64,000 nt of DNA, taken from assembly GCF_963921235.1 (NCBI RefSeq), contig NC_086108.1:21700001-21764000 (forward strand). Reading direction: 5' to 3'. Shown one piece after another: positions 9,471 to 56,800 of the stretch (the stretch's first letter is position 1; each line of letters starts with the position of its first letter). The DNA comes from Mobula hypostoma. Lineage: Eukaryota. The notes under the pieces are model-generated. The model was not told where the DNA came from. It saw nothing but the letters and a program-made list of their open reading frames with translations, and made no database searches. The position numbers and the translations under genes are program-made.

Positions 9471-9635
9471 GTGTATCCATAAATGCAAATACCTTGGATC
9501 CTTCCTAGTATCAAACTGGGAGGTCCAGAAATGGGCATGTGGCTCAAGATAGCAGTGGAGATATGTACCCTGGGACTAAGTGAGCATGTGATCGATAAAC
9601 AGAAGAGATGCAGAGATCACAGAAGGGGAACCGTA

Positions 9636-11271: not shown

Positions 11272-13232
11272 AGACTATAAAACCATAAGGCATAGGAGCA
11301 GAATTAGGCCATCTGGCCCATCGAGTCTACTCCACCATTCAATCATGGCTGATCCTTTTTTTTCCTCCTTCTCCTCAATCCCAGTTCCCAGCCTCCTCCC
11401 CGTAACCTTTGATGCCATGTCCAATCAAGAACCTATCAACCTCTGCCTTAAATACACCCAACCACCTGGCCTCCACAGCTGCACATGGCAACAAATTTCA
11501 CAAATTCACCACCCTTTGGCTAAAGAAATTTCTCTGCATCTCTGTTTTGAAGGGGCGCTCCTCTATCCTGAAGCTATGCCCTCTTGTCCTAGACTCTCCC
11601 ACCGTGGGAAACATCCTTTCCACATCTACTTTGTCTAGGCCTTTCAACATTCAAAAGGTTTCAATGAGATCCCCCACCCGCCCCATCCTTCTGAATTCCA
11701 GAGCCATTAAATGTTCTTCATAACCCTTTCATTCCTGGAATCATCCCTGTGAACATCCTCTGTACCCTCTCCAATGCCAGCATATCTTTTCTAAGATGAG
11801 GGGCCCAAAACTGTTCACAATACTCAAGGTGAGGCTTCACCAGTGTCTTATAAAGCCTCAGCATCACATCCTTGCTCTTGTATTCTAAATCTCTTGAAAT
11901 AAATACTAACATGACATTTGCCTTCCTCACCACTGACTCAACCTGCAAGTTAACCTTCAGGGTGTTCTGCACAAGGACTCCCAAGTCCCTCTGCATCTCA
12001 GATTACTGAATTTTCTCTCCATTTAGAAAATAGTCTGCACATTTATTTTTACTACCAAAGTGCATGACCATGCATTTTCCAACATTGTATTTCATTTGCC
12101 ACTTTATTGCCCATTCTCCTAATCTGTCTAAGTCCTTCTGCAGCCTGCCTGTTTCCTCTACACTTCCTGCCCCTCCACCAATCTTCGTATCATTTGCAAA
12201 CTTGGCAACAAAGCCACCTATTCCATCATCTAAATCATTTATATATAAAAGGAATTGATCCCAACACCGACCCCTGTGGAACACCACTAGTCACTGGCAG
12301 CCAACCAGAAAAGGATCCTTTGATTCCCACTTGCTGCCTCCTACCAATCAGCCAATGATCTAACCATGTTAGTAACTTTCCTGTAATACCATGGGCTCTT
12401 AACTTGGTAAGCAGCATCATATGTGGCACCTTGTCATAGGCCTTCTGAAAGTCCAAATATGCAACATCCACTGCATCCCCTTTATCTATCCTACTTGTAA
12501 TCTCCTCAAAGAATTCCAACAGATTCCTCAGGCAAGATTTTCCCTGAAGGAAACCATGCTGATTTTGTACTATCTTGTCCTGTGTCACCAAGTACTCCAT
12601 CACCTCATCCTTAAAAATTGACTCCAACATCTTCCCAACCACTGAGGTCAGGCTAACTGGTCTATAATTTCCTTTCTGCTGCCTTCCTCCTTTCTTAAAG
12701 AGTGGAGTGACATTTGCAATTTTCCAGTCCTCTGACACCATGCCAGAGTCCAGTAATTTCTGAAAGATCATTTCTACTGTCACGACAATCTCTAACGCTA
12801 TCTCTTCCAGAACCCTAGGACGCAGTTCATCTGGTCCAGGTGACTTATGTACCTTTAGGTCTTTAAGCTTTTTCAGCACCTTCTCTCTTGTAACTGCACC
12901 CACTTCTCTTCCTTCACACACTACAACATCAGGCATACTGCTAGTGTCCTCCACAGTGAAGACTAATACAAAATGCTCATTTAGTTTGTCAGCCATCTCC
13001 TTGTCCCCCATTATTATTTCTCCTGCCTCATTTTGTAGCGTCCTATATCCTCTCTCATTTCTCTTATATTTTTAAATACTTGAAAAAAGTTTTACCATCC
13101 ACTTTGATATTATTTGCTAGCTTGCTTTCATATTTCATTTTTTCCCTTCTAATGATTTTTTTAGTTACTCTGTGTAGGTTTTTAAAAACTTCCCAATCCT
13201 CTATCTTCTCACTAATTTTTGCTTTGTTGTTT
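11272..13232 (-). mobile_element. 5'-truncated CR1 LINE
   Basis: 258-aa ORF (DWKIANVTPLFKKG, NYRPVSLTS, YLDFQKAYD, GVPQGSVLG) plus downstream frameshifted RT pieces and CR1 3' UTR. Confidence 0.92.
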
Positions 13233-18376: not shown

Positions 18377-21198
18377 GCAACATACATCAAAGTTGCTGGT
18401 GAACGCAGCAGGCCAAGCAGCATCTGTAGGAAGAGGTGCAGTCGACGTTTCAGGCCGAGACCCTTCGTCAGGACTAACTGAAGGAAGAGTGAGTAAGGGA
18501 TTTGAAAGTTGGAGGGGGAGGGGGAGATCCAAAATGATAGGAGAAGACAGGAGGGGGAGGGATAGAGCCGAGAGCTGGACAGGTGATAGGCAAAAGGGGA
18601 TACAAGAGGATCATGGGACAGGAGGTCCGGGAAGAAAGACAAGGGGGGGGATGCCCCAGAGGATGGGCAAGAGGTATATTCAGAGGGACAGAGGGAGAAA
18701 AAGGAGAGTGAAAGAATGTGAGCATAAAAATGAGTAACAGATGGGGTACGAGGGGGAGGTGGGGCCTCAGCGGAAGTTAGAGAAGTCGATGTTCATGCCA
18801 TCAGGTTGGAGACTACCCAGACGGAATATAAGGTGTTGTTCCTCCAACCTGAGTGTGGCTTCATCTTTACAGTAGAGGAGGCCATGGATAGACATGTCAG
18901 AATGGGAATGGGATGTGGAATTAAAATGGGTAGCCACTGGGAGATCCTGCTTTCTCTGGCGGACAGAGCGTAGATGTTCAGCAAAGCGGTCTCCCAGTCT
19001 GCGTCGGGTCTCGCCAATATATAAAAGGCCACATCGGGAGCACCGGACGCAGTATATCACCCCAGTCGACTCACAGGTGAAGTGATGCCTCACCTGGAAG
19101 GACTGTTTGGGGCCCTGAATGGTGGTAAGGGAGGAAGTGTAAGGGCATGTGTAGCACTTGTTCCGCTTACATGGATAAGTGCCAGGAGGGAGATCAGTGG
19201 GGAGGGATGGGGGGGACGAATGGACAAGGGAGTTGTGTAGGGAGCAATCCCTGTGGAATGCAGAGAGAGGGAGGGAGGGAAAGATGTGCTTAGTGGTGGG
19301 ATCCCGTTGGAGGTGGCGGAAGTTACGGAGAATAATATGTTGGACCCAGAGGCTGGTGTGGTGGTAGGTGAGGACCAGGGGAACCCTATTCCTAGTGGGG
19401 TGGTGGGAGGATGGAGTGAGAGCAGATGTACGTGAAATGGGGGAGATGCGTTTAAGAGCAGAGTTGATAGTGGAGGAAGGGAAGCCCCTTTCTTTAAAAA
19501 AGGAAGACATCTCCCTCGTCCTAGAATGAAAAGCCTCATCCTGAGAGCAGATGCGGCGGAGACAGAGGAATTGCGAGAAGGGGATGGCATTTTTGCAAGA
19601 GACAGGGTGAGAAGAGGAATAGTCCAGATAGCTGTGAGAGTCAGTAGGCTTATAGTAGACATCAGTGGATAAGCTGTCTCCAGAGACAGAGACAGAAAGA
19701 TCTAGAAAGGGGAGGGAGGTGTCGGAAATGGACCAGATAAACTTGAGGGCAGGGTGAAAGTTGGAAGTCAACGAGTTCTGCATGCGTGCAGGAAGCAGCA
19801 CCAATGCAGTCGTCGATGTAGCGAAGGAAAAGTGGGGGACAGATACCAGAATAGGCACGGAACATAGATTGTTCCACAAAGCCAACAAAAAGGCAGGCAT
19901 AGCTAGGACCCATACAGGTGCCCATAGCTACACCTTTAGTTTGGAGGAAGTGGGAGGAGCAAAAGGAGAAATTATTAAGAGTAAGGACTAATTCCGCTAG
20001 ACGGAGCAGAGTGGTGGTAGAGGGGAACTGATTAAGTCTGGAATCCAAAAAGAAGCGTAGAGCTTTGAGACCTTCCTGATGGGGGATGGAAGTATATAAG
20101 GACTGGACATCCATGGTGAAAATAAAGCGGTGGGGGTCAGGGAACTTAAAATCATCGAAAAGTTTAAGAGCGTGGGAAGTGTCACGAACATAGGTCGGAA
20201 GGGATTGAACAAGGGGTGATAAAACAGTGTCGAGGTATGCAGAAACGAGTTCGGTGGGGCAGGAGCAAGCTGAGACAATAGGTTGGCCAGGACAGGCAGG
20301 TTTGTGGATCTTGGGTAGGAGGTAGAAACGGGAAGTGCGGGGTGTGGGAACTGTAAGGTTGGTAGCAGTGGATGGGAGATCCCCTGAGCGGATGAAGTCG
20401 GTGATGGTGTGGGAGACAATGGCCTGGTGCTCCTTAGTGGGGTCACGATCGAGGGGTAAATAAGAAGAGGTATCCGCGAGTTGTCGCTGTGCCTCGGCAA
20501 GGTAGAGGTCAGTACGCCAGACTACAACAGCACCCCCCTTATCGGCGGGTTTAATAATAAGGTTAGGATTAGTGCGGAGGGAGTGGAGAGCAGAGCGTTC
20601 CGAAGGAGTGAGGTTGGAATGGGGGCAAGGTGCGGTGAAGTCGAGACGGTTGATGTCCCGTCGGCAGTTAGCAATAAAGAGATCCAGAGCAGGCAGAAGA
20701 CCAGAGCGGGGTGTCCATGAAGAAGAGGAGGGTTGAAGACGGGAGAAGGGGTCATCGGTAGGGGTGGAAGAGTCCTTGCCGAAGAAGTAGGCTCGGAGAC
20801 GGAGACAGCGGAAGAAAAGTTCCGCATCATGGCAAATACGGAACTCGCTGAGGTGTGGGCGAAGGGGGACAAACGTGAGGCCCTTACTGAGCACAGAGCG
20901 TTCTGCCTCCGACAGTTGAAGGTCAAAGGGGATGGTATAGACCCGGCACGGATGAGAGCTGGGATCAGAGCGGGGAGGGGGGAGGCTGGTGGTGTCAGTG
21001 GAGAGGGGAGGGTTGGGGTGACAGGAAGATGGAGCCTCTGAGGGCCCAGGAGTTGACGGTGGGATCTGAGGAAGACGGGGCTGCGGAGTGGTGGTGGGGG
21101 AAGAGGAGACGGGAGTCACAATAGCAGCACATAAAGACCCGGCCTGGAGTTCAAGGCTGGAGTCGCAGTTGGTGGTTGCGCAATCGCTGTGAAGACAT
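18377..21198 (-). mobile_element. Penelope-like retroelement (RT + GIY-YIG endonuclease), one frameshift near 19765
   Basis: IKPADKG, YLLPKIHK, DVQSLYTSIP, GVAMG, RYIDD, FLDL and VIYCVRCSRCGLLYIGET...RFAEH motifs. 15-bp TSD acatttatttttcaa at 18362-18376 and 21199-21213. Confidence 0.95.
18439..18476 (-). ncRNA. Minimal hammerhead ribozyme motif in the Penelope 3' region
   Basis: Minus strand reads tagtc CTGACGA agggtctcggcct GAAAC GTC gactg: conserved core, stem I tagtc/gactg, short stem II, palindromic ACGT stem III. Confidence 0.8.
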
Positions 21199-21967
21199 AC
21201 ATTTATTTTTCAACATAGTTCCCTCCTACATTTACACACTTAGTCCAACAGTCGTGGAGCATACGGATCTTGGGCCTCCAGAAAGTGTCCACAGCAGGGG
21301 TGATTGATAAGTTTGTGGCCTAAGGTAGAAGGAAATAAGTTATTAACTTCAAACTTTCTGCATAATCACTCAAAGAGTTGAACTGCGCATGCATGTAACG
21401 AGAGCTGTATAACTCATCTCCTTCTACCTTAGGCCACGAACTTATCAATCACCCCTCATATTTTCATTTATTTATACTTATAATTTCACTGGCTTTGAGA
21501 AAGTTATCAACTTCTTTCACAACATTTCCATTGCTTATTCCACAACATGAATGAGCAAATTAAAAATAAAGCTAGAAGACTGGAAATTAATCACCAGTCA
21601 GTTTGGGCTGGCCTTTGCCAAGCTGAGCTGACAAGTAGCTGGTGGTTCCTCAGAAGTCGATACAATTTCTTGAACTTCTGTGTATATTCAATTACGCAAG
21701 TGCAAGGTGAGCTGGACATGTCAGCTTACCTGACCTCCCACTCCACTGCTGGACTCATGGAGCTCAGCAATAGTGCTCAGGAGGATACAGGATGCAGCAT
21801 CTTTGATTGACACAATACGAGACTGTTATGTGCACAGTGGCCACATTAGTTAGAAGAAGATAACACTTTTAATCACTTGCTGATATTTACATCGACGCTG
21901 GTAAATTTTATCTCCACTCTCTCCATCATCAAGTCTGTAGTAGGCAGCTTTCACTACAGAATGTTGC

Positions 21968-30730: not shown

Positions 30731-31879
30731 TCTACATATATACGGTATAAATGGGCTATTGATAAACAAAGCTTGTTCCTGTTAAAGTGAAAACATTAAT
30801 AAAGTTCTTCTTTCTGCTGCCTAGTCAATGCACCTGGCTTGAGCTAAAACAGGGCAGCTAAAAAATCATTCTCTTTGGTCAAAATCCTCCTTGGCATTAT
30901 ATCCATTTTGTCCTCTGATAACTAACCACAACACACATTAAAAGATTGATATAGTTGCTAAAGGTCAATTACCTCAGCCCTACGGCATTATTATGCCATT
31001 CCTTAAAGTTACAATGCCCTTCCTTCCAATAAAACGGGAATTTTCAACCCCGGGTTCACGGACCCCTTGGTTAATGGTATTGGCCCATAGCATATAAAAG
31101 GTTAGAAATGGGAATGTGCAATGTTCCATTCCAATTGCAACACTCCAGCAAGTGAAGCTTGGTAATTTAAAGGTTACAAGGCTACAAAATAAAAGAATGG
31201 ATAGTGTATATTGCCTCCCAGACATTTAGAAGCTGCCAAACATAACAATGGTTGAAGATCCAAGGGACTGATTTGTGATTTAATTCAAAGAATAAAGCTC
31301 CAGTGTTCATTGATCACAGGATTCTGACTCTGCAAGAAACTAGTAAATTTCTATTTAAGGTTCAATGAAATGAGAATAACTACATTTTATAACAAAAGTA
31401 GCACAAAATAAGGGACAATATCCTGATGTAACACATTCTCAGCTTCATTTACTGGCAGGAATGAATGGTTGTAATAAAATAAGAAACAGTGAGTCAACGC
31501 CAAGATTACTCCAACTGAATCCAGGGCATCGATAGCAGCCAGAAGAGCTGGTATTAAGAAATACTGAAAAGGCTACCTTCAGAAAGTAAAATAGCTAAGA
31601 AATGAAACTTTAATCAGACTCATGAGTGGAACAAGATCCTAGCATGAACTGTCAGGAGAAATCAACTCAATGCTCTTTAATGGAGGTGATATTGTAGATG
31701 AACTACTGGCTGCTACAGTAACACAAAGATGACCAAACTGGTAAGAGAAGGACTGTGGTGATTCACTACCACCTTCTGAAAGACAGACAATAACAGACAA
31801 TAAATGCTGGCCTCTTCCAGCAATGTGCTGAGCCCCCAAGGCATTACTTAGATTTCCATATATTACAGCTGTCAAAGGA

Positions 31880-34182
31880 ACATGCTGGACCTTGTTTACA
31901 CAACCATTCCTGACGCATACCGGGCAGAGACCCGCTCCCACCTTGGTTACTCAGACCACATCTCTGTTATGCTCATCCCAGCACACAGACCGCTCATTAG
32001 GCACTCCAGACCAGTTCAAAAGCAGGTGAAAACCTGGCCAGCAGGAGCCATCTCTGCTCTTCAAGACTGCTTTGAGCACACTGACTGGCACATGTTCAGG
32101 GAGGCTGCAACCAATAGCGACTCTACCAACTTAGAGGAGTACACGGCATCAGTGACTACCGACATCAGCAAGTGCATTGATGACATCACTGTGGCCAAGA
32201 CCATCACTACACGCGCTAATCAGAAGCCATGGATGACTGCGGAAGTGCCTGCGCTGCTGAGGACCCGTGACTCTGCCTTCAGAGCAGGCGACAAGGCAGC
32301 CCTAACAACAGCGAAGGCCAAACAGTCCCAGGCCATCAGAGGGGCAAAGCATGCACACGCCCAGCAAATCCACAGCCACTTCCAGGACAGTGGCGACACG
32401 CAGCGCATGTGGCAGGGCATTCAGGACATCACCAACTACAAGACAACACCAACTGCCTGTGCTGGAGATGCCTCCCTCCCAGATGTGTTGAACAACTTCT
32501 ACGCTCGTTTTGAGGTGGAAAATGACATGGCAGCGAGGAAGACCACTCCTTCTCCAAATGACCAGGTGCTGTGTCTTACTGTGGCCGATGTGAGGAGAAC
32601 CCTGTGCAGGGTCAACCCACGGAAGGCTGCTGGACCAGACAATATTCCTGGCAGAGTGCTTAGAGGATGTGTAGACCAGCTAGCTGAGATTCTCACTGAC
32701 ATCCTCAACATCTCCCTGAGCAGCACCATCGTTCCTACATGCTTCAAGGCCGCCACCATCGTCCCCGTGCCGAAGAAGTCTTCAGTGTACTGCCTCTTAC
32801 TGTCCCGTCGTACTCACATCCATCATCATAAAGTGTTTCAAGAGGCTTGTCATGAGGCACATCAAGACCCCGCTGCCCTCCTCACTGAACCCCTGCAGTT
32901 CGCGTACCATCCCAACCGTTCAACAGACGACGCCATTGTCATCACCCTCCACCTGGCCCTAACCCACCTGGACAAAAAAGACATGTACGTTCGAATGCTG
33001 TTCATGGACTTCAGTTCAGCATTCAACACAATCATTCCTCAGAAACTGATTGGAAAGCTGAGCCTACTGGGTCTGAACACCTCCCTCTGCAACTGGATCC
33101 TAGAATTCCTGACTGGGAGACCTCAGTCAGTCCGGATTGGAAGCAGCATCTCCAACACCATCACACTGAGCACGGGGGCCCCCCAGGGCTGTGTGCTCAG
33201 TCCACTGCTGTTCACTCTGCTGACCCACGACTGTGCAGTAACACACAACTCAAACTACATCATTAAGTTCGCCGATGACACGACTGTGGTGGGTCTCATC
33301 AGCAAGAACAACGAGTCAGCATACAGAGAGGAGGTGCAGTGGCTAACGGACTGGTGCAGAGCCAACAACCTGTCTTTGAATATGAACAAAACAAGAATTG
33401 TTTGTTGACTTCAGGAGGACACGGAGCAACCACTCTCCACTGAACATCGACACCTCCTCCGTAGAGATAATTTTGAGCACCAAATTTCTTGGTGTTCACC
33501 TGGCGGAGAATCTCAGCTGGTCCCTCAACACCAGCTCCATAGCAAAGAAAGCCCGGCAGTGTCTCTACTTTCTGCGAAGGCTGAGAAAAGTCCATCTCCC
33601 ATCCCCCACCCTCACCACATTCTACAGAGGTTGTATTGAGAGCATCCTGAGCAGCTGCATCACTGCCTGGTTCGGAAATTGCACCATCTCGGATCGCAAG
33701 ACCCTGCAGCGGCCTCTCTTCCCGACATTACAGACATTTACATCACACGCTGCATCCGTAAAGCAAACAGCATTACGAAGGACCCCACGCACCCCTCATA
33801 CAAACTCTTCTCCCTCCTGCCATCTGGCAAAAGGCACCGAAGCATTCAGGCTCTCACAACCAGACTATGTAACAGTTTCTTCCCCCAAGTCATCAGACTC
33901 CTCAATACCCAGAGGCTAGACTGACACCAACCTACTGCCCTCTGCTGTGCATATTGACTTTTTATTATTTATTGTAATGCCTGCACTGTTTTGCGCACTT
34001 TATGCAGTCCTGGGTAGGTCTGTAGTCTAGTGTAGTTTTTGTGTTGTTTTACGTAGTTCAGTGTAGTTTTTGTATTGTTTCATGTAGCACCATGGTTCTG
34101 AAAAATGTTGTCTCGTTTTTGCTGTGTACTGTACCAGCAGTTACGGTCGAAATGACAATAAAAAGTGACTTGACTTGACTTG
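31880..34182 (+). mobile_element. Rex1/Babar-clade LINE, 5'-truncated, few disruptions
   Basis: [41 protein letters not shown] and KFADDT motifs; aataaa + (GACTT)n tail. Confidence 0.92.
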
Positions 34183-38178: not shown

Positions 38179-41100
38179 ACTGGTCAAGTTTTGTTCCTTC
38201 TATTTTTATGTTTTAATTCTTTTCAGAAAAAAGTATTTTAATCACTAATTATTTTTATTCAAAATAATCAAGAGAATTTAAAAGTCTCTGAACATTCGAG
38301 TTTGAAAAATTGTTGCACAGCCTTGTTAAGTGGCAAGGAATATGGAAGGACCTTCAGATGCTGAGATGTCAACAGTACAGGACGTGAAAAAAACAGCAAA
38401 AGCAGCAGGCAGAACATAGACTAGTACAGGATGGAGATTCCATCATTAGTTGCAAATCCATGGGTCTAACAAGCTCTTAGTGCTGCTGTCCTATCTGCCT
38501 CCACCACTTCCCCTGGCAGCCCAATTTAAGCACCCACCAGTCTCTGCAAAAACAGATCTTGCCGCGCACATTTCCTTTAATTTTTTACCCTCACACCTTA
38601 ATTTTATGTCCTCTAGTACTTGATATTTCTATCCTGGGAAAAATATTCTGACCGCCTGCCCTATCTATACCTCCCATAATTATACAGATGTCACTCTCCC
38701 TATTGTTAATTTCCTATCCTTCTCCCAGTTTCCTTTGATTGTGCCACGGTTCCGACCACTAATTTCCCATTTGCTTCTAATTCTCTTTGATGAAGACACA
38801 CCTGGTTTCCATCAAGACCTGCAGCATAAGAACCCCGGCGTTACAACCACAAGTCGCCAGATCATTAGTTTTGCCTGTGCGGTAATTAGCGTTTCCCAGC
38901 CGCTTAAGACCATGTGATCTAAGTTTTGCTCCAGTTTCAAGGTTTACCTATGAACTCTGTCTCCGTGTCAAGATCCCTCCTGTTTGCTGTTCAACGTTCA
39001 CGTCCGCGTAAGCATCCTAACTCAATTTCCGTGCCTGTGTCCTGCACTTGGGTTTGCTTCATTCGCTCATTGGAACAGAACGATCTGGCCACAATGGACC
39101 CAGCAGACACGAATACCCTGCAACAAGCCCTCCCCAGCCAGGGCTCCCTGCTGGTTTGCACAATCAACTTCTCCGGGATGTCATGGAGAACCTTCGTTCC
39201 TTGTCTGCTAACGTAACGAAGATCGGTGACCAGGTGGACCATGTATCCACTCATTTTACCCCATCCACTCCTGGAACTCTGTCTAACCAGCCCAGACAGC
39301 CTGTAGTAGCAACCCGCTATGTGTCAGCAACACCCCTGTCAAGAGAGCCGCACGTACCTGAACCAGAACACTACGCTGGGGATTTGGGGAAGTGCCGGGC
39401 CTTCCTTCTGCAATGCTCCTTGGTGTTTGAACAGCAGACATCCACGTACTCCATGGATAAGTCAAAGATAGCTTATATCACGGGGTTGTTGCGGGGAAGT
39501 GCCTTAGCGCGAGCTACAGCTGTTTCGGATAATCAACTGGATATCTGCTCTTCTTTCCCCACCTTTATCGCGGAAATGAGAAAGATCTTTGACCACTCGA
39601 TCCATGGTAAAGATGCCGCTAAGCATCTATTCACTCTCCATCAGGGCTCACGCAGTGTTGCCGATTATTCTGTGGAGTTCCGGACATTAGCAGCCGACTC
39701 GGGGTGGAACGCTGAGGCACTCCAAGGGGTATTTCGGAATGGTCTCAGCAATGTGGTGAAAGACGAGTTGGCAGCAAGAGATGACACCGACAGCCTGGAT
39801 TGCTAGATCTGCCTAGCCACCAGGTTGGACAATCGTCTTCGAGAATGCCATAGGGAAAGAACTGGTCGACTACCACCTTTGATCATGGCACTCTTTACTG
39901 TCTCCCACCTGCACAAGTCTCTCTTCTCCTCCTGCTCCTAGAATAGCTCCCAGCCCGGCCGTTTCCACCACCCCAGGACAGGAACCCATGCAGCTAGGAC
40001 AGAACTGTCTTTCTCCCACAGAGCGACTCCGGAGATTGAGAGTGGGGGAGTGTCTCTATTGCAGCCAGTCCGGCCACTTCCGTGCCACCTGCCCCCTTCA
40101 GCCAAAAGGGAAGGCTCATCAGTAGAAAGGGGGACCCTGGTGAGCCAGACAACATTCCCTTCTGTCCCCCGAACCTGGATGCAAATCCAAGCTACTTTAC
40201 GTTACAACCAACAGTCCCTGCCTCTGTCAGCTCTAGTGGCTCCGGCGCTGAGGGAAACCTTTTGGATGGAAACATAGCTTCCCGGGCCGGAATTCCTCAG
40301 GAGTCATTGAGTACCCCTCTGGAAGCCTGGGCACTGGACGGTAGACTCCTGGCCCGAGTCACACACTGCACACCAGCCCTATTTCTTATTCTCTCCCAGA
40401 ACCATGGGGAACAGGTACAATTTAACCTAATTTCCTCTCCTCAAGCTCCTCTAGTTTTTGGGTATCCCTGGTAAACTGCCATAATCCCCACATTGACTGG
40501 TCCACCGGGAAGATAGTCAGCTGGAGTCTGTTCTGTCACTCCACTTGTCCACAATTGGCCCTTTTCCCTATGAAAGTCATCGCGACCTCATCTGCCGCTG
40601 AAACTGCTGACTTATCCAAGGTTCCAGCAGAGTATCATGATCTGGGAGAAGTGTTTAGCGAACAACGGGCTCTTTCCCTGCCTCCACACTGCCCTTACGA
40701 TTGCGCAATTGACCTTCTCCCTCGAGCCCTCTACCCACCAGTCGGCTGTATAACCTGTCCCAGCTAGAAAGTGAAGCAATGGAGGCCTACCTTAATGACT
40801 GTCTCGCGGCAGGCATGATCCAACCCTCAGCTTCCCCTGTTGGTGCAGGTTTCTTCTTTGTGGGGAAGAAAGACGGCTCACTGCATCCTTGCATTGACTA
40901 CCGGGGCCTGAATAGCATAACCATAAAGAATAAGTATCCGCTGCCCCTTATCAACTCTGCTTTCGAACCCCTTCACGGAGCCGCCATCTTCTCTAAGTTG
41001 GATCTACCAAGTGCCTACCACCTGGTCAGGATAAGGGAGGGAGATGAGTGGAAAACAGCTTTTAACACCCCTCTTCGGCACATCGAATACCTGGTCATGC

Positions 41101-42916
41101 CATTCGGTCTCACCAATGCCCCCGCCGTCTTCCAAGCCTTGATAAACGATGTCCTTAGGGACCTTATTAACTGTTTCATTTTTGTTTATTTGGACGACAT
41201 CTTAATCTTCTCCCGCAGTCTTAGGAACACACCCACTATGTCCGTCAGGTTCTGCAGAGGTTTTGGGAGAACAAACTATTTGTGAAGGCTGAGAAGTGCA
41301 AGTTTCATGTCCCTTCTGTCAGTTTCTTAGGGTACATCATCAAGAGCGGGCAAGTGAAGGCAGATCCTGAAAAGATCTAGGTGGTGGTGGGGTGGCCAAA
41401 ACCCACGACACTCAAGCAACTCCAGCCACTTCAGGGGTTCGCAAACTTTTATTGTCACTTCATCAAGGATTACAGCCGGGTGGCAGCGCCCCTTACTCGA
41501 CTCACATCTCCTACGACCCCTTTTCACTGGGACCCCGAAGCAGACTCAGCCTTCTCTGAGCTGAAGAGGGGTTTCACCTCTGCTCCCATCCTGGTCCAAC
41601 CTGACCCCTCTTATCAATTCATTGTGGAAGTTGACGCCTCCAACTCTGGGTGGGAGCGGTCCTTTCCCAACGCTCTGACCCAGACCAAAAGCCCTGTCCC
41701 TGGGTCTTCTTTTCTCGCCGGCTATCCCCACCGAACAGAACTACGACATAGGGAACAGGGAGTTACTAGCCGTCAAACTCACTTTGGAGGAGTGGAGGCA
41801 CTGGCTGGAGGGAGCAGAACATCCATTAATCATCTGGACAGATCACAAGAATCTCACATGCATCCAAACCGCCAAACACCTGAATTCCTGGTGTTACGTA
41901 CCCCGTAACTGGGTTGCCAAACCAGCAGAAATGGATCACTCAGTTGGAGTCTGGAGTACTAGAACTAAGAAAGTTTTATTAAAGAAACAAGCAACACAGT
42001 AATCGAAAGGATAATAAATGCAACAATTCAACAATGATAACCACACATGTGCACAGAATTAAGATAACAGCATCAATCAAGCTCTATCGTTGTCTAGGGG
42101 TAAATGACCAATTTCAAAATGACTCAAAGTTCAGTCCAGTTTGTAGTTCAGTTCGCAGTAATCGTTGCCATGGCGATGGACAAGGTGGGGGAAGAGAGAC
42201 AGAGAGAACAACTCATCATTCAGCACAGCTTCACTCACAGACCAGCGAGATTGCTCACGAGCAACTTTTGGGTGGGTCCTTGGTGATGTCACCTGAGGTC
42301 ACCGACTGTGACCCCTCCTCCAGATGCGGTCGATCCTCTGCAGTGAACCCGGCACCCAGGCAAGGGCGGACACACACCGGGTTCCCGCTGATCGTACCTT
42401 TCCACCCCGTGCGTTGTCCGGTACTTCTCACCACTCGTGAGAGGCGCACCGCTTCCAGGGTCTCGTTACCTCGGGTGGCGTGTGTGTCGCCTTAGCGAAC
42501 CTGTCCCTTTTTATCCCCCTGCTGGGGTATCGCCTGTCCATCACTTCAAACAGTTCAGGGTTCAAAGGGGGGAGCCGCTCCAGACAGCTCTCCCTCCCAC
42601 ATCCCTTCATTACACATCTCCAGACGCTGCTCCATTGTTCCTTATCTCTCCTTCCCCTGAGGGCAGGTGGCAGACCAACTGCTGATGCCACTGATGCTAG
42701 CCCAGGCCAGCAAACATCTTAATTTTATGTGTATTCTCGTAACACTTCCCCCCTTTAAGGATTTTTACCGGGAGGTAAAAATTACAAACATGACTACATT
42801 ATCTGATACATACACAATATACATCTTTAACAGTTATTTAGCTAATACAGAGAATTTGAAGCTGTCAACACCTTGACAGACAGTCATCACATTTTCTGTT
42901 CCTTTTCCACGTGTTA

Positions 42917-44437
42917 CTAATAATCCCTTAGACCAGGCTCCAACTCAGCAAACTTCATAGTGGCCAAAAACACTGATGAATTGCGACCAATGTAACCTCT
43001 CATCTGGTTTTGTCCCGGACCACAACAACAAGGGTTGTCCCATTCCGACTCAATTTTCTCTCGCAAGGGCTTAGTAGGAGGGGGACGGGTATTGACCACA
43101 GAGTTATTGCAAAACTTCCTGCAGTACCCCACCATCTCCAAAAGCCTTCTGAGGGCCCTCTTGTCTGTCGGGGTTGGGAGGTCAGCGATAGCCTGCACTG
43201 TAGCTTGCATCACTGCCAGCTGCCCCTGTGTCACCACAATTCCCAGGTAAGTGACCCTTGTGTGGCCGAATTCATTTTTTTCAAGGTTCACTATCAAGCT
43301 GGCTTCAGACAGCCGTATTAAATTGCCAATACACACCTCTGTGGTCATCAGCCCTTTAGTCACTGAATTACTCGAAAAATATGGGTGTTGTTTACTTGGC
43401 CGCCCTATTGTAACCACAATCACCCAACGTCCCAGTTCTTTGCATTTCCTCGGGACAATCAAACACATAGGTGCGAGTCGTTTAATTACTCCTTCGGGGA
43501 TTAAGGGAGAGACCTTATCAGTAGACCTGGCCAAAACAATAGCCTTCTCCCATCTGACCGATCCCATCCTAATCTTTTCAAAATGGTTTTTTCCTCTTAG
43601 CAGGGGGCCCCTAGCTTCATTGATTTCCACGCTAACACCGACTAGGTTTGTTAGCATATCAAAAGCCGGTGACCGTCTCAGTTCGCGTCGGTCATGATCA
43701 ATAACATTCTTCCCCCTGGGCAGCCGGTAAATCTCTTTCATGATTCCACCAACTGTTTCCTCCAGCACCGCAAAATGTCCACCGGGGGGTACCTCGTGGG
43801 CCATGTTAAAAACCTCATCCCCATAACTCTTTTGCACCACCCCCCATTCCTCATCTGCGGGTACTGTACTTGATTTCCCTTTCTTCCTTAGCACTTCCTC
43901 CTCCGCACAATAGCTTGTCAAGGCTGTGTCAGAGAGAGCGGTCTCGGCAAAAACCATCAGCCCCTCGTCTCGCTCCTGCGTCTGCACAAATTCTTTCCTG
44001 GCTACTGCTACGTCCGTCCCAGCTCCCTCACTACCTCTTATCTCACTACACCCTGTCTCATACAAGGTTGGCAGAAATGTTTCAGCCAAATTCACCATCG
44101 CGGGCGGGGCCTCCATGCTGGCAGGCTGACCCGTCAATCTCACGACTGGGAACACGATTCCTCCGGCGATGTCATTACCGAGCAAGACTTCCACGTCTTT
44201 CATCGGTAATTCGGACCTCACCCCGATCGTGACTAGTCCAGAGACCAGGTTGCTCTGTAAATGTATCTGGTGCAAAGGGACTGACTCTATCCCTTCCCCA
44301 ACACCTTTGACCTCTACCTCCCCAGTCTGGGTCTCTGAGCTAAACTCTAATACACTCTTCAGTATTAGTGACTGACACGCTCCCGTGTCTCTCCAGATCC
44401 GCACTGGAACTGGTTCCAACCCCTCCTTCACTGACAC
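42917..44437 (-). CDS. Pol-derived ORF: intact aspartic protease followed by collapsed integrase/RT remnants, 506 aa
   Basis: RDTGACQSLI...LLGND protease; AHEVPPGGHF (IN N-terminus); PSKQHPY; LIVNLEKNEFG...VTYLG; RALRRLLEMVGYCRKF. No YxDD and no DDE core. Confidence 0.8.
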   Translation of the reverse strand: MSVKEGLEPVPVRIWRDTGACQSLILKSVLEFSSETQTGEVEVKGVGEGIESVPLHQIHLQSNLVSGLVTIGVRSELPMKDVEVLLGNDIAGGIVFPVVRLTGQPASMEAPPAMVNLAETFLPTLYETGCSEIRGSEGAGTDVAVARKEFVQTQERDEGLMVFAETALSDTALTSYCAEEEVLRKKGKSSTVPADEEWGVVQKSYGDEVFNMAHEVPPGGHFAVLEETVGGIMKEIYRLPRGKNVIDHDRRELRRSPAFDMLTNLVGVSVEINEARGPLLRGKNHFEKIRMGSVRWEKAIVLARSTDKVSPLIPEGVIKRLAPMCLIVPRKCKELGRWVIVVTIGRPSKQHPYFSSNSVTKGLMTTEVCIGNLIRLSEASLIVNLEKNEFGHTRVTYLGIVVTQGQLAVMQATVQAIADLPTPTDKRALRRLLEMVGYCRKFCNNSVVNTRPPPTKPLREKIESEWDNPCCCGPGQNQMRGYIGRNSSVFLATMKFAELEPGLRDY

Positions 44438-44440
44438 CAG

Positions 44441-45763
44441 TCAGGCCGAGATAAACCTCTCGCGCCCTTTCTGGACTTTTTCAGACCTGTCCTTCCCTAG
44501 CGGTTCGCTTAACAGCTCAATACAGCCATTCAAAATTTCCGCTTTTCCTTTCCCCGTCTCCTTCCTTGGGGCAAAGCACCTGGACGCAAAGTGTCCGACT
44601 TTCCCACAATTATAACAGACGACCCCAGGAGACTTCCTACCAGACTGCTCCCGGTCTACCTTATCCTTTTCACTAGTCCCCGGCTTACTTTCTGACTTTT
44701 CCGGTGGACTCTCCCCGCCGTCCTGACTACCCTTCTGGTAGCCTTTACTCGGGGCAACCTTCATTTTATGCGTCAACGCATACTCATCCGCTAACTTAGC
44801 AGTTGCGGCTAACGTGGTTGCCTCTTTCTCATCGAGGTAGGGTCTCATACCCTCAGGGACACAACCTTTAAACTGCTCAATCAGAATCAGCTGCAGCAGT
44901 CTGTCGTAATCCCCCTCTACCCCCTTCGAGGCGCACCAACGCTCACAATATGTTTGCATCTCGCGAGCAAACTCCAAATACGTGCGGTCCCACCGCTTCC
45001 TCGCATTCCGGAACCTCTGCCGGTATGCCTCCGGGACCAACTCATAAATCCTGAGGATGGCCTCCTTCACCACCTCATACTTCTGGGCATCTTCCGCGGA
45101 TAAAGCGGAGTAAGCTTGTTGGGCCTTCCCTTTCAGTACACTCTGAAGTAAAACAACCCACTTATCCCTTGGCCAGTCCTGACTTATGGCCACTTTTTCG
45201 AAATGGAGAAAGTACCGATCCACATCGGTATCGTCAAATGGGGGAACCAGCCTAACCTCCTGGGTCGCCCGGAACCCTCCACCTTGGTTCGGCACGAGCC
45301 CCTGCTCGGCCCTTATCTTTAACTTCTCCAGCTCAAATTCCCTTTCCCTCTGTTTCTCCTCTCTCTCCAACTGTCTGTCCCTCTCTCTCTCTTCTCTCTC
45401 CAACTGTCTTTCTCTCTCTTGCCTTTCTACCTCTTTCTCTCTCTCTCGCCTTTCTAACTCTCTCTCTTTCTCTTCGTGTTCTAACTGCCGTACCCGGAAC
45501 TCGTGCTCGAGTCTCAGTTTTTCAAGCTGTACCTGTACTGCATCTCCAGCAGGTTTTTCAATAGACACCACCCCCAGCTCACCTTGGGGAAACACACCTT
45601 TAGATACATAGTGCTCTACAATAGCTCTGTGTATCTCCTCTCTCCTCATTGTCGACTTCACCTTAGCAAGATTCACCCGTTTGGCCACAGCTATCAATTC
45701 CGATTTCCTGGCATCCTCTAATGCCTCCAAGGTCGGCGCCTTTATAAATTCCTCAACCTCCAT
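44441..45763 (-). CDS. gag: Gag of the Gmr1-like element (E/R coiled coil, SCAN-like capsid, CCHC zinc knuckle), intact 440 aa
   Basis: LVPPFDDTDVDRYFLHFEKVA, LKGKAQQAY, YELVPEAYRQRFR, LILIEQF and CYNCGKVGHFASRC motifs. Confidence 0.9.
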   Translation of the reverse strand: MEVEEFIKAPTLEALEDARKSELIAVAKRVNLAKVKSTMRREEIHRAIVEHYVSKGVFPQGELGVVSIEKPAGDAVQVQLEKLRLEHEFRVRQLEHEEKERELERREREKEVERQERERQLEREERERDRQLEREEKQREREFELEKLKIRAEQGLVPNQGGGFRATQEVRLVPPFDDTDVDRYFLHFEKVAISQDWPRDKWVVLLQSVLKGKAQQAYSALSAEDAQKYEVVKEAILRIYELVPEAYRQRFRNARKRWDRTYLEFAREMQTYCERWCASKGVEGDYDRLLQLILIEQFKGCVPEGMRPYLDEKEATTLAATAKLADEYALTHKMKVAPSKGYQKGSQDGGESPPEKSESKPGTSEKDKVDREQSGRKSPGVVCYNCGKVGHFASRCFAPRKETGKGKAEILNGCIELLSEPLGKDRSEKVQKGRERFISA

Positions 45764-47487
45764 TTCTGCTGTTTGTCTTTTCTTTCTTTCGGGAATTTTA
45801 ACCCAATCAATTTACTCCGTCCCAAATTTAGCGTTCAAAATCCTGGACGAGCCCCCACTTATGTTACGTACCCCGTAACTGGGTTGCCAAACCAGCAGAA
45901 ATGGATCACTCAGTTGGAGTCTGGAGTACTAGAACTAAGAAAGTTTTATTAAAGAAACAAGCAACACAGTAATCGAAAGGATAATAAATGCAACAATTCA
46001 ACAATGATAACCACACATGTGCACAGAATTAAGATAACAGCATCAATCAAGCTCTATCGTTGTCTAGGGGTAAATGACCAATTTCAAAATGACTCAAAGT
46101 TCAGTCCAGTTTGTAGTTCAGTTCGCAGTAATCGTTGCCATGGCGATGGACAAGGTGGGGGAAGAGAGACAGAGAGAACAACTCATCATTCAGCACAGCT
46201 TCACTCACAGACCAGCGAGATTGCTCACGAGCAACTTTTGGGCGGGTCCTTGGTGATGTCACCTGAGGTCACCGACTGTGACCCCTCCTCCAGATGCGGT
46301 CGATCCTCTGCAGTGAACCCGGCACCCAGGCAAGGGCGGACACACACCGGGTTCCCGCTGATCGTACCTTTCCACCCTGTGCGTTGTCTGGTACTTCTCA
46401 CCACTCGTGAGAGGCGCACCGCTTCCAGGGTCTCGTTACCTCCGGTGGCGTGTGTGTCGCCTTAGCGAACCTGTCCCTTTTTATCCCCCTGCTGGGGTAT
46501 CGCCTGTCCATCACTTCAAACAGTTCAGGGTTCAAAGGGGGGAGCCGCTCCAGACAGCTCTCTCTCCCACATCCCTTCATTACACATCTCCAGACGCTGC
46601 TCCATTGTTCCTTATCTCTCCTTCCCCTGAGGGCAGGTGGCAGACCAACTGCTGATGCCACTGATGCTAGCCCAGGCCAGCAAACATCTTAATTTTATGT
46701 GTATTCTCGTAACACTGGCAAGCCCGTTGGGCATTATTTTTTGGCCGTTTTAGATTCACACTCACCTATCATCCGGGTCCAAGAACAAGAAGCCAGATGC
46801 TCTCTCCCATCAATCTCTCTCAAGTCTGAAGATCCTTTTGTCAAGCCCTTGGAGCCTCAGTAAACCTGTCTTCCAGCTTCCATCCGCAGACTAACGGTCA
46901 AACAGAATGAGGAAACCAGGATTTGGAAGCAGCAATGCGCTGCATAACCGCCAACAACCTGTCATCCTGGAGCACCCATCTCGTTTGGGTCAAGTACGCC
47001 CACAACTCCCTGGTCAGCACCGCCACCAGAATGTCTCCCTTTGAATGCATCCTCGGTTACCAACCCCCTCTGTTCTCCGCTCATGAAGATGACATTGCTG
47101 TGCCTTCTGTTCAGGCCCATCTCTGCCGGTGCCGCAAGATCTGGAAGGTTGCACGCGCAGCCCTGCTCCGCTCAGCCGACCGCAACTGGAGGATTGCCGA
47201 TTGCCATCGAATTCCTGCACCAAATTATCGGCCTGGGCAGAAGGTTTGGCTCTCATCAAAAGACATCCCCCTCAAGAATGAACCCAATAAACTTGTGCCT
47301 CACTACCTGGGACCATTTGAGATTGAGAGTGTCATCAACCCCTTAGTGGTCAGACTCAAACTGTCTGGATCCATGCACATTCATCCCACGTTCCACATCT
47401 CCCAATTGAAACCTGTATCTGTCAGCCCTTTGTGCCCTCCTGCCAAATCCCCTCCACCTGCCCGGATCATTGACGACCACCCAGCGT

Positions 47488-48270
47488 AGTCATAGTCATA
47501 GTCATACTTTATTAATCCCGGGGGAAATTGGTTTTCGTTACAGTTGCTCCATAAACAATAAATAGTAATAGAACCATAAATAGTTAAATAGTAATATGTA
47601 AATTATGCCAGTAAATTATGAATTAAGTCCAGGACCAGCCTATTGGCTCAGGATGTCTGACCCTCCAAGGGAGGAGTTGTAAAGTTTGATGGCCACAGGC
47701 AGGAATGACTTCCTATGACGCTCAGTGCTGCATCTCGGTGGAATGAGTCTCTGGCTGAATGTACTCCTGTGCCCAACCAGTACATTATGTAGTGGATGGG
47801 AGACATTGTCCAAGATGGCATGCAACTTTGACAGCATCCTCTTTTCAGACACCACCGCCAGAGTGTCCAGTTCCATCCCCACAACATCACTGGCCTTACG
47901 AATGAGTTTGTTGATTCTGTTGGTGTCTGCCACCCTCAGCCTGCTGCCCCAGCACACAACAGCAAACATGATCGCACTGGCCACCACAGACTCGTAGAAC
48001 ATCCTCAGCATCGTTCGGCAGATGTTAAAGGACCTCAGTCTCCTCAGGAAATAGAGACGGCTCTGACCCTTCTTGTAGACAGCCTCAGTGTTCTTTGACC
48101 AGTCCAGTTTATTGTCAATTGGTATCCCCAGGTATTCGTAATCCTCCACCATGTCCACACTGACCCCCTGGATGGAACCAGGGGTCACCGGTACCTTAGC
48201 TCTCCTCAGGTCTACCACCAGCTCCTTAGTGTTTTTCACATTAAGCTGCAGATAATTCTGCTCACACCAT
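47488..48270 (-). mobile_element. 5'-truncated Rex1/Babar LINE inserted at the start of the chromodomain of the sushi-type element
   Basis: Open 199-aa C-terminus (KTKEL-like, KKGQSRLYFLRRLRSFN, FLPVAIKLYN) and aataaagt(ATGACT)n tail. The host reads DDHPA|YTVQQ across it. Confidence 0.92.
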
Positions 48271-49078
48271 ATACACTGTCCAGCAAATACTGGATGTACG
48301 CCGCTGAGGCAGGGGTCTCCAGTACCTGGTCTATAGGGAGGGATATGGCTCGGAGGAACGCTCCTGGATTCCCCGCTCCTTCATTCTGGATCCTTCCCTC
48401 ATCCGTGGTTTCCATCGAGACAATCCAGACAAGCCTGGTGGTCTGCCTGGAGACTCCTGTTTGGGGGGGGGGTGGTGTTGTAATGGTCCCGATTGTTAAT
48501 TCCGTATCTTTCTCCTAATTTCCTTTGATTGTGCTATGGTTCCAACCACTAATTTCCCATTTGCTTCTAATTCTCTTTGATGATGACACACCTGGTTTCC
48601 ATCAAGACCTGCAGCATAAGAATCCTGGCATTATAACCACTAGTCACCAGATCGTTGGTTTTGCCTGTGTGGTAATTAACATTTCCCGGCTGCTTACGAC
48701 CGTGTGTTCTGCTCCAGTTTCAAGGTTTACCTATGAACTCTGTCTCTCTGTGTCAAGATCCCTCCCGTTTGCTGTTCAACATTCACGTCTGCGTAAGCAT
48801 CCTAACTCATCTCCGTGCCTGTGCCCTGCACTTGGGTTTGCTTCATTCGCTCATTGCAACAACGGACTTGCACCAGATCACCCCTCAGCCTCTCATGCTC
48901 CATAGAAACCAACCCTAGTTTGTCCAACTTTTCTTTCTGGCTCATACCCTTTAATCCAGGCATTATCCTGGCAGAGCTATTCATATTTTTGTAAATGTGC
49001 AAACAAAATTGGACATAATATGCCAAGTGCAGCCTAGCTGAAGTTTTATAATACAGCAACTTCCTTAGTCCTCTACTC

Positions 49079-53866: not shown

Positions 53867-56800
53867 ATGAATGTCCAAGGATATATGGTGTATCGGAAAG
53901 ATAGGTTAGTAGGCAGAGGGAGTGGTGTGGCCCTGTGTATAAGAAATAATATTAAATCATTAGAAAAGGATGACATAGGATCGGAAGGTGTAGGGTGTCT
54001 ATGGGTTAAGTTAAGAAATGGCAAAGGTAAAAGGACCCTAATGGCAGTTGTATACAGGCCTCCAAACAGCAGCTGGGATGTGGATTACAAATTACAGCAG
54101 GAGATCGAAAAGGCATGTCAGAAGGGCAATGTCATGATAATCGTTGAGGATTTTAACATGAAAGTGGATTGGGATAACCAGCCAAATACTGGACCTCAAG
54201 AGAGAGAATTTTTAGACTGTCTAAGGGATGGCTTTTTAGAACAGTTTGTTGTTGAAGGGATTGGCTGTGTTAGATTGGGTGTTGTGCAATGATCCGGAGG
54301 TGATAAGAGAGCTTAAGGTTAAGGAACCGTTAGGGAACAGTGATCAAAATATGATTGAGTTCACTTTGAAATTTGAGAAGGAGAAACTAAGTTCCAATGT
54401 GTCGGTATTTCAGTGGAATAAAAGAAATTATAATGGCATGAGAGGGGAACTGGCCAAGGTAGACTGGAAAGGTACTAGCAGGAAGGACAACAGAGCAGCA
54501 ATGGCTGGAGTTTCTGCCAAAAATGAAAGTGCAAGACAGATATATTCCAAATAAGAAGAAATTTTCAAATGGAAGGACGCTACCATGGCTGGCAGATGAA
54601 GTCAGAGCCAAAGTAAAAGCAAAAGAGAGGGCATACAAGGAAGCCAAAGCTAGTGGGAAGATAGAGGATTGGGAAGCTTTTAAAAACTTGCAGAAGGAAA
54701 CTAAGAAGGTCATTAGGAAGGAAAAGATGAATTATGGAAGGAAGCTGGTGATTAATATCAAAGAAGATACTAAAAGCCTTTTAAGTATATAAAGGGTAAA
54801 AGAGAGTTGAGGGTAGAGATAGGACCAATAGAAAATGACGCTGGAGATATTGTAAATGAGAAATGTCTAGATGGCAGAGGAACTGAATGCATATTTTGCA
54901 CCAGTTTTCACAGTGGAAGACTTCTGCAGTATACCAGACATTCAAGAGTGACAGGGAAATAGAGTATGTGCTGTGAAAATTATGACTGAGGACGTGCTCA
55001 GGAAGCTTAATGATCTGAGGGTGGATAAATCTCATGGACCTGATGGAATGCACCCTTGTGTTCTGAAGGAAGTAGCTGGAGAGATTGTGGAGGTATTAAC
55101 AATGATCTTTCAAGAATCGATAGATTCTGGCATTGTACTGGATGACTGGAAAATTGCAAATGTTACTCCATTATGTAAGAAGGGTGGGAGGCAGCAGAAA
55201 GGAAACTATAGACCTATTAGCCTGATATCAGTGGTTGGAAAGTTGTTGGAATCGATTGTTAGGGATGAGATTATGGAATACCTGGAGGCATATGACAAGA
55301 TAGGCCAAAGCCAGCATGATTTCCTGAAAAGAAAATCCTGCCTGACAAACCTACTGCAATTTTTTGAAGAAATTACAAGCAGCGTAGACAAAGGAGATGT
55401 AGTAGATGTGGTGTACTTGGATTTTCATAAGGCCTTTGACAAGGTGCCACACATGAGGCTGCTTAGCAAGATAAGAGCCCACGGAATTACAGGAGAGTTA
55501 CTAGCATGGGTGGAGCATTGGCTGATCGGCAGAAAACAGAGAGTGGGAATAAAGGGATCTTATTCTGGCTGGCTGCCGGTTACCAGTAGAGTTCCACAGG
55601 GGTCAGTGTTGGGACCACTGCTTTTACGATATATGTCTAGGATTTGGACTGTGGGATTAATGGATTTGTGGCTAATTTTGATACAAAGATAAGTGGAGGA
55701 ATGGGTAGTGTTGAGGAAACAGAGAGCCTGCGGAGAGACTTGGATAGTTTAGGGGAATGGGCAAAGAAGTGGCAAATGAAATACAATGTTGGAAAGTGTA
55801 TGGTCATGCACTTTGGTGGAAGAAATAAACGGGCAGACTATTATTTAGATGTAGAGATGCAAAGGCACTTGGGAGTCTTTGTGCAGGATACCCTAAAGGT
55901 TAACCTCCAGGTTGAGTTGGTGGTGAAGAAGGTGAATGCAATGTTGGCATTCATTTCTAGAGGTATAGAATATAAGAGCAGGTATGTGATGTTAAGGCTC
56001 TATAAGGCACTTGTGAGCCCACACTTGGAGTATAGTGTGCAGCTTTGGGCTCCTTATTTTAGAAAGGATATATTGACATTGGAGAGGGTTCAGAGAAGAT
56101 TCACGAGAATGATTCCAGGAATGAAAGGGTTACTGTATGAGGAACATCTGGCAGCTCTTGGGCTGTATTCCCTGGAGTTCAGGAGAATGAGGGGGGATCT
56201 CATAGAAACACTCTAAATGTTAAAAGGCCTGAACAGATTATATACGGCTAAGTTATTTCCCATGGTAGGGCAGTCTAGGACAAGAGAACATGACTTCAGG
56301 ATTGAAGGACGTCCATCTAGAGAAATTACTTTGTCACAGTCCAGTCCATGAAGTCTGCATTCCGGTTCACGGTCTGGTCCGTGGATTACGTACTCCGGTT
56401 ATTCCATTTTTCCCTTGTTCCGTTGGGTGCCTTAACTGAGGCTCCTGATTCTCGTTTTGGGCTGGCAACATAAATAGCTCTGGGGTCCAGTGATTCCTTG
56501 CTGAACCATCCTTATCAGTAGCCTTGTCAGTAACCTCGCCAGAATCCTCGCTGGAACGGGTCCATCAAGTTAATCCACCGCAGTGAGTCAAGAACCACTG
56601 TCTGTAGTTCTGGGGCCTAGTCGAGAGCTTGCCGCTACTTGGAGCCACTTCATGCTAAGATAAAAGAACCGTCTATCACTGTGTGGTTTTGTCTCATCGT
56701 GCCATTCGTCTCCGCTGGGTAGGTCCGGCCATTTTCCGCTACCCTGAGGGGGGAACAGTCTCAGTGTTCTGTGCCCTGTGACTAAGAAGAGCCCCAGCTC

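Follow-up and report, generated by a model that had tools for sequence, protein, structure and literature searches.

Our analysis of a 64,000-nucleotide stretch of DNA (the window) revealed a member of a young, non-autonomous Gypsy family in which a dead pol gene has kept its reading frame open through extensive deletion and substitution. Capsid domain, domain order and the features of the LTRs, polypurine tract and target-site duplication (TSD) mark the family as Gmr1-like. We propose, with a probability of roughly 60%, that it makes its own Gag and protease (PR), likely borrows its remaining enzymes, and likely keeps the dead pol free of stops for the survival of its RNA and escape from nonsense-mediated decay (NMD). 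Since the frame has been kept and the amino acids of the tail drift almost neutrally, we are confident that selection acts on the open frame and not on the tail protein; NMD or RNA survival would be the probable cause of that selection. The element and its setting comprise the following features, in window coordinates.

38697-48861, plus strand: host Gypsy element, with LTR pieces 88-94% identical and gag/pol broken
41892-46714, minus strand: whole LTR element, with an interior of 3117 bp
46715..46718 and 41888..41891: two copies of the TSD CTGG, matching in sequence
45862..46714, minus strand: 5' LTR of 853 bp, TGTTAC...GTAACA, with 5 differences from the 3' LTR
45843..45861, minus strand: candidate primer-binding-site region abutting the 5' LTR, a function suggested by position
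44444..45763, minus strand: gag from its ATG, with a variable-length charged coiled-coil repeat, SCAN capsid and zinc knuckle
about 44765-45034, minus strand: SCAN domain in the gag capsid (Pfam SCAN PF02023, E 2.9e-13)
about 44576-44620, minus strand: gag zinc knuckle (Pfam zf-CCHC, E 3.3e-6)
44441..44443, minus strand: TGA that cuts the family's single frame, restricted to the window copy by comparison with other copies
44102..44440, minus strand: aspartic protease with DTG at 44381-44389, sharing 88% of its amino acids with the full-length relative
42917..44101, minus strand: collapsed pol tail, 394 codons and a stop, which follows the ancestral pol frame as far as about codon 952
43772..43801, minus strand: integrase zinc-finger histidine remnant AHEVPPGGHF, its Cys pair gone (alignment to the full-length relative)
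43650..43699, minus strand: zone of a net 888-nt in-frame deletion that removed the integrase core and C-terminus (frame-blind DNA alignment)
43400..43402, minus strand: codon 804, sense in the window copy and TAG in 26 others
43363..43390, minus strand: 384-nt in-frame deletion junction right behind PSKQHPY, with most of the RT core gone (alignment)
43322..43339, minus strand: EVCIGN, what is left of the dead RT active site, with a 54-nt in-frame deletion right behind it (alignment)
43088..43315, minus strand: remnant of the RT thumb/connection, less diverged than any other tail block (84% nucleotide identity)
43020..43030, minus strand: 258-nt in-frame deletion junction, with most of RNase H gone (frame-blind alignment)
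42914..42919, minus strand: two tandem stop codons closing the frame, the 3' LTR lying 172 nt further (sequence)
42870..42960, minus strand: RNase H end remnant with out-of-frame deletions of 14, 8 and 4 nt at codons 952, 961 and 976
42745..42757, minus strand: polypurine tract (sequence)
41892..42744, minus strand: 3' LTR, with one AATAAA at LTR position 765 as the putative poly(A) signal

LTRs of the form TG...CA, a polypurine tract and a short TSD are all present, and the primer-binding-site region is near-identical in full-length relatives. Two variants of that region (45840-45861, minus strand) segregate in the collapsed and full-length families alike, and a charged ERE/ERQ repeat in gag (45310-45490, minus strand), which differs among copies by multiples of 3, is the source of most of their interior size variation. 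The element was inserted into an older, decayed plus-strand Gypsy element, interrupting it near its RNase H-integrase boundary. A fragment inside this host (47640-48380) is presumably LINE-like, and the RT-like ORFs elsewhere in the window (12235-13071, 18767-21209, 31852-33408 and 54952-55692) we take to be non-LTR or Penelope-like repeats; a long purine-skewed low-complexity tract occupies 7817-9575.

The stop-to-stop ORF at 42917-44440 on the minus strand spans 507 codons, and the motifs that the earlier note had read in it were all located: DTG and LLGND of the protease, AHEVPPGGHF, PSKQHPY, EVCIGN, at the place where the full-length relative has YIDDL in the alignment, and the RT thumb. 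The same is true of the Gmr1-type marks it had named, a SCAN capsid and remnants in PR-IN-RT-RH order, which is complete in the full-length relative L078. An RNase H end remnant does lie beyond the stop, as had been claimed, but it is split over two frames and is not a single-frame remnant. The other two frames of the tail contain 29 and 32 stops in 393 codons, which bears out the view that so long an open frame is non-random. Intact RT, RNase H and integrase are absent, having been removed by the deletions of 888, 384, 54 and 258 nt. A Pfam scan of the 507-aa ORF matched no family, and single-sequence AlphaFold prediction of the tail, made without an alignment, gave a mean pLDDT of 33. Sibling copies read from gag through protease to the tail in a single frame of about 950-1000 codons, closed by tandem TAA TAA in 146 of 152 copies and by any two tandem stops in 148 of 152. 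The TGA at 44441-44443 was found in one of the 30 top-scoring copies, the window copy itself, and in none of 59 copies picked by position. As this TGA lies upstream of the protease, the window copy should make no protease under normal translation.

A DNA search of the element's own genome yielded 3242 candidates, 40 of which were scored and proved to be full-length, comprising the window copy and 39 others at 97-98%; a matching 4-bp TSD was present in 24 of the 30 top-scoring copies examined. An exact 28-mer spanning the RT deletion junction has 1026 matches in the genome, which rules out that the deletions are private to the window copy, the outcome that the earlier note had named first as counting against its reading. 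For comparison, a 24-mer of the RT core common to six full-length relatives has 125 matches; both counts are exact-match lower bounds from probes of different length (28 vs 24), and on them there are about 8 collapsed copies per RT-bearing copy. To sample copies irrespective of similarity, we took junction matches 1 to 60 of contig C1 and, after dropping L147, were left with 59 that had both LTRs in view. In this sample the TSDs match in 53 of 59 copies, the median LTR divergence is 0.23% and the two LTRs are identical in 9. Deletions common to so many copies, most of those sampled with their own 4-bp TSD, agree with the proposal of a distinct lineage. The LTRs of the window copy are near-identical, as had been said, and the family is young, but at 0.6% LTR divergence the window copy itself is older than the family median.

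The single frame runs uninterrupted from gag through protease and tail to its normal close in 22 of the 30 top copies, and in 37 of the 59 position-picked copies neither a stop nor a frameshift breaks it from codon 165 onward. Stops and frameshifts in sibling tails, which the earlier note would have counted against frame selection, do occur (16 of 59), yet gag-PR is broken too (12 of 59) and the breaks are nearly all private. They reflect neutral decay after insertion and are for that reason not diagnostic. Database proteins of 521-1659 aa searched for collapsed-tail relatives gave nine matches, six labelled Mobula hypostoma (devil ray) and three RT-bearing. The protein P0012, a 966-aa Gag-PR-tail copy, is called 'metastasis-associated in colon cancer protein 1 isoform X1' and probably stems from a gene model that was joined to an inserted copy. 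The element also occurs in tandem arrays with a spacing of about 4 kb, of four units at G000:C18:110.88-110.89 Mb and with a shared LTR at C9:185.04 Mb and likewise at C1:150.48 Mb; they arose from unequal recombination or assembly duplication.

What does the history of insertions and deletions say about the frame? Frame-blind DNA alignments of the sibling copy L005 against L078, L076 and L077, under three gap settings, gave net junctions of 63, 21, 12, 15, -3, 888, 18, -3, 384, 54, -3 and 258 nt in the tail, and one further junction in PR. The earlier note had asked whether deletion lengths are multiples of 3; all 12 tail junctions are, for which the chance probability is (1/3)^12=1.9e-6, with the proviso that a net junction may conceal several events. 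From codon 952 on, near or after the stop, all three junctions (14, 8 and 4 nt) are out of frame. L078, L076 and L077 agree on the junctions under all three settings, which also leave the 888-nt deletion in the same place. Three further relatives, L075, L085 and L082, each have one out-of-frame tail junction where the other three agree, and these we read as the copies' own indels. Private or recurrent tail indels number 2 in-frame and 13 frameshifting, against 12 of 12 for the junctions (Fisher p 6e-6). Both L078 and the outgroup L077 are gapless in this region, and the indels therefore belong to the collapsed lineage, whose tail has 394 codons compared with 988 in the full-length relative.

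Substitutions tell the same story. At sites where L078 equals L077, 234 of 911 (26%) have changed in the tail, so the frame is old though the copies are young; a neutral simulation with that spectrum predicts 7.2 stops where none is fixed (P 6e-4; P 0.017 at half rate). It is on these indels and missing stops that the earlier suggestion of selection holding the tail in frame now stands. Tail lengths differing by 27, 21, 12 and 18 nt segregate, all in-frame, with the longer forms in 5, 1, 23 and 9 of 59 copies. Only in-frame deletions survive, and the tail thus shrinks stepwise and is still shrinking. The longer variants have an old, diverged filler, and the copies that carry the extra 27 or 18 nt are themselves older; an origin by recent recombination with the helper was rejected, the filler being diverged from the helper. 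Divided into 30 bins, the tail is covered in 28-29 of them by contigs from two other organisms, which retain the terminal stop, and no new stop was seen among 29 and 20 changed codons (33 in-frame rows among the 40 of 83 rows listed); run X9, with too little coverage, was left out. Paired +1/-1 gaps near 43415-43422 in these contigs cancel out; in run X5 one contig has a 2-nt loss at 43764 and one a 179-nt skip with unknown filler. The contigs hint, weakly, that the lineage may be older than one genome.

Gag and protease behave differently from the tail at the protein level. Lineage dN/dS was 0.26-0.33 for PR, with a wide confidence interval, and 0.61-0.84 for the tail, full-length branches giving about 0.1-0.35; the interval for the tail contains 1 at kappa 2 and 3, not at kappa 1, and these deep-branch figures come from one copy per lineage (L005, L078 and L077). 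Change rates along the lineage at codon positions 1/2/3 were 0.22/0.27/0.29 in the tail vs 0.08/0.02/0.12 in PR, and 106 of 250 tail codons had changed against 116+-8 expected under neutrality without stops, the changes being no more conservative than neutral ones. Among variants seen at least twice in the 59 copies, pN/pS was 0.21 for gag, 0.29 for PR (p 0.005) and 0.73 for the tail (p 0.18), with p 0.004 for gag and PR against the tail; a similarity-picked set of 30 copies agrees in pattern. Singletons gave 0.76 for gag, 0.46 for PR and 0.90 for the tail, and some private 1-nt indels are perhaps assembly errors. The shared variants bear out, for the family, the claim that the element makes its own capsid and protease. 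As for a tail dN/dS near 1, which had been put forward as an argument against selection on the tail, the observed 0.6-0.8 comes close, but selection on the frame alone predicts just that; neither this test nor that of sibling stops discriminates between the readings.

The tail is not uniform in this respect. Position-2 rates vary between its blocks (p 1.7e-4) and are lowest in the post-PR spacer and the RT thumb, and in the spacer the position-2 rate is below that of position 3 (p 0.02); some residual protein constraint may persist in both. Together with a lineage dN/dS of 0.44-0.59 in the RT-thumb block, this heterogeneity gives substance to an explanation that we consider rather unlikely, namely that the tail peptide matters in cis as in the mouse IAP 1Delta1 element. 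A loosely constrained extension, perhaps involving the RT-thumb remnant, would aid capture of its own RNA or the timing of the protease, so that truncation is harmful though the sequence drifts freely. The tail has never been deleted outright, and reviews, in the passages on 1Delta1, credit its fusion with helping retrotransposition in cis and report that translation aids mobility in cis (PMC6466679, PMC7411935). Against such a role, shared variants in the thumb have a pN/pS of 0.95-1.58, the amino acid changes are as unconservative as neutral ones, every catalytic motif is gone and the tail goes on shrinking.

Where could the missing enzymes come from? The 34 loci picked by LTR comprised 24 solo LTRs and 10 collapsed elements but no full-length element; a query with the RT of database protein P0001 found the candidate helper instead. 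It led to 20 loci, mostly picked for long open frames, of which 4 have LTRs 93-97% and gag-PR 91-94% identical, 2 are more distant and 14 form an older group. L078 has a single gag-pol frame of 1564 codons with the complete PR-IN-RT-RH order. Nucleotide identity between L005 and L078 is 98-99.8% in gag, 76% in the linker from nucleocapsid (NC) to PR, 89% in PR, 63-77% in the tail and 99% over the last 141 nt of the interior, and their Gag proteins are 100% identical outside the repeat and linker. From this mosaic it follows that the tail is far older than the common gag and ends, a history that suggests repeated recombination in co-packaged RNAs; linkage among family copies fades within 15-120 nt for most pairs tested. 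One of the 59 copies, L154 (G000:C1:118168730-118174130), is collapsed but has an NC-PR linker of the helper type (97% identity) and is, by its sequence, a direct recombinant of the two families. RT, RNase H and integrase would likely be borrowed in trans from a full-length relative of this kind, which has its LTR and gag in common with the family. Three of the 20 RT-picked copies, L089, L091 and L093, all from the older Gmr1-like group, have in common a net 537-nt deletion (about 7070-7115 in the oriented loci) affecting the RT thumb and RNase H, with the frame stopping just past the junction; they appear as a second shared deletion derivative, one that lacks a long open tail.

The relationship to the helper need not be purely selfish. 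The family could give extra Gag and protease to a capsid-poor helper or to the host, the open tail securing expression, and the helper's single gag-pol frame, the identity of the L005 and L078 Gag proteins and the excess of collapsed copies in a heavily recombining pool would accord with this. We regard it as improbable. Private variants are near-neutral in gag and tail alike, which implies that the host does not conserve inserted copies, and a benefit in trans leaves unexplained why stops are purged from the donor RNA's own descendants.

Several observations speak against strict selection on the frame. The TAG at codon 804 lies 160 codons before the end and occurs in 26 copies genome-wide and in 4 of 132 sampled, whereas 65 other CAG/CTG sites show at most one change each. 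Its carriers (20 of 22 extra ones collected, plus the 4 in the sample) are older, with a median LTR divergence of 0.53% vs 0.23% (p 0.006), occur on both local haplotypes and form no clade over PR and tail (p 0.41); they cluster locally (p 0.0065), a result confounded by pattern-based picking. Double CpG decay was rejected as the origin of the stop, CG having become TA at 0 of 58 other CpG sites. The TAG is a mutational hotspot or a leaky propagated allele; stop-bearing RNAs may have been copied, and stops late in the tail are perhaps not excluded completely. In 5 of 138 aligned loci a recurrent +1 shift is present near codon 934, and shared-variant stops number 0 with 2.4 expected, a contrast of low power alone. 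Gag conservation could be inherited via recombination with the helper. Should the LTR AATAAA serve as poly(A) signal, the 3' UTR would measure about 950 nt even now, and a post-PR stop, adding about 1.2 kb, would only about double it. In the Ty1 work, as excerpted, the element's proteins lack cis preference and NMD factors assist it (PMC3945221), so cis preference is not universal. That there is no frame selection at all, a lucky, recently deleted master having been amplified or the tail being kept for RNA signals with the frame a relic, might appeal to the youth of the family and the common codon-804 stop but is very improbable given 26% divergence over an old frame, in-frame lengths at all 12 junctions and in the segregating deletions, and two other organisms that keep the terminal stop and show no new one in the 40/83 rows listed.

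We favour selection on the frame for the sake of the RNA and suggest the following model. The element would yield a Gag-PR-tail precursor, with RT and integrase supplied by the helper through putative co-packaging with helper RNA and enzymes. Ribosomes would stop only about 170 nt short of the 3' LTR; such near-complete translation would allow the RNA to escape NMD and remain available for packaging, an advantage presumed to act in cis on the RNA, with NMD as its presumed agent. In this model the tail peptide would ride as a passenger until the protease removes it. Retroviral RNA with a long 3' UTR is described, in the source as excerpted, as an NMD target (PMC5580461). Between the two uses of an open tail that the earlier note had offered, the data as read from genomic copies speak for translation or NMD avoidance rather than for a repurposed protein. 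More tentatively, since we would put it somewhat below even odds, the family may exemplify a general, unnamed class of Gag-protease LTR parasites with a translated stuffer tail, in which dead pol is selected for read-through alone and the tail module outlives the LTR and gag, swapped repeatedly by recombination with an active helper. If true, the stuffer-tail class would preserve, in nature, the mark that NMD has left on the architecture of retrotransposons, and the tolerance of stops could be measured as a function of distance to the 3' end; about 1000 young copies, whose natural stops lie at known distances, amount to an allelic series. The element carries its own controls, namely a conserved protease upstream, free frameshifts beyond the stop and neutral private decay, and it offers a testable case for translation or NMD acting in cis on a vertebrate retrotransposon RNA. 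A long open frame is not proof of a functional protein, a caution that matters for the gene models that exist for family copies.

How does the family compare with known systems? Coding non-autonomous LTR elements are already known, plant TR-GAG and mouse IAP 1Delta1 among them. Our literature search, with Repbase/Dfam and most subscription journals outside its scope, found neither a description of the family nor one of any Gag-protease element whose pol tail is neutral and free of stops. Like Gmr1-like Ty3/Gypsy elements, the family has a SCAN capsid, a zinc knuckle and remnants in the PR-IN-RT-RH order described for that group in the excerpted preprint (bioRxiv 10.1101/2025.03.03.638093), and its gag-PR is 36-43% identical to full-length polyproteins with SCAN, rve, RVT_1 and RNase H (best 8 of 11 matches). 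Unlike them it lacks a live integrase core, RT core and RNase H, is non-autonomous and outnumbers its helper by about 8 to 1. TR-GAG elements are non-autonomous, have one Gag ORF and are mobilised by a similar autonomous element; their description, as excerpted, speaks of Gag only and mentions neither a conserved protease nor a long stop-free pol remnant (PMC8704663). Here the frame is not a single Gag-only ORF and runs on through the protease and the 394-codon tail. Rous sarcoma virus (RSV), in the account excerpted, counters NMD with a 400-nt RNA element after the gag stop (PMC5580461), whereas the proposed solution here is a stop near the 3' LTR. Alongside TR-GAG, the closest parallel is IAP 1Delta1, a non-autonomous and very active element in which, according to the review passages, an internal deletion created one open gag-pol fusion frame (PMC6466679, PMC7411935). 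As there, in-frame deletions have left one gag-pol fusion frame, in a separate lineage. IAP 1Delta1 differs in being an endogenous retrovirus with one 1.9-kb deletion in gag and pol that needs Gag in trans, whereas the present family keeps gag and protease whole and conserved and has a tail marked by about 26% substitution and no fewer than 12 in-frame indels. The usual view of non-autonomous LTR elements is one of decaying cargo; here a dead gene appears to be under strong selection for its frame and not for its protein, and the long erosion of the tail provides an evolutionary test of frame versus protein that IAP 1Delta1 does not.
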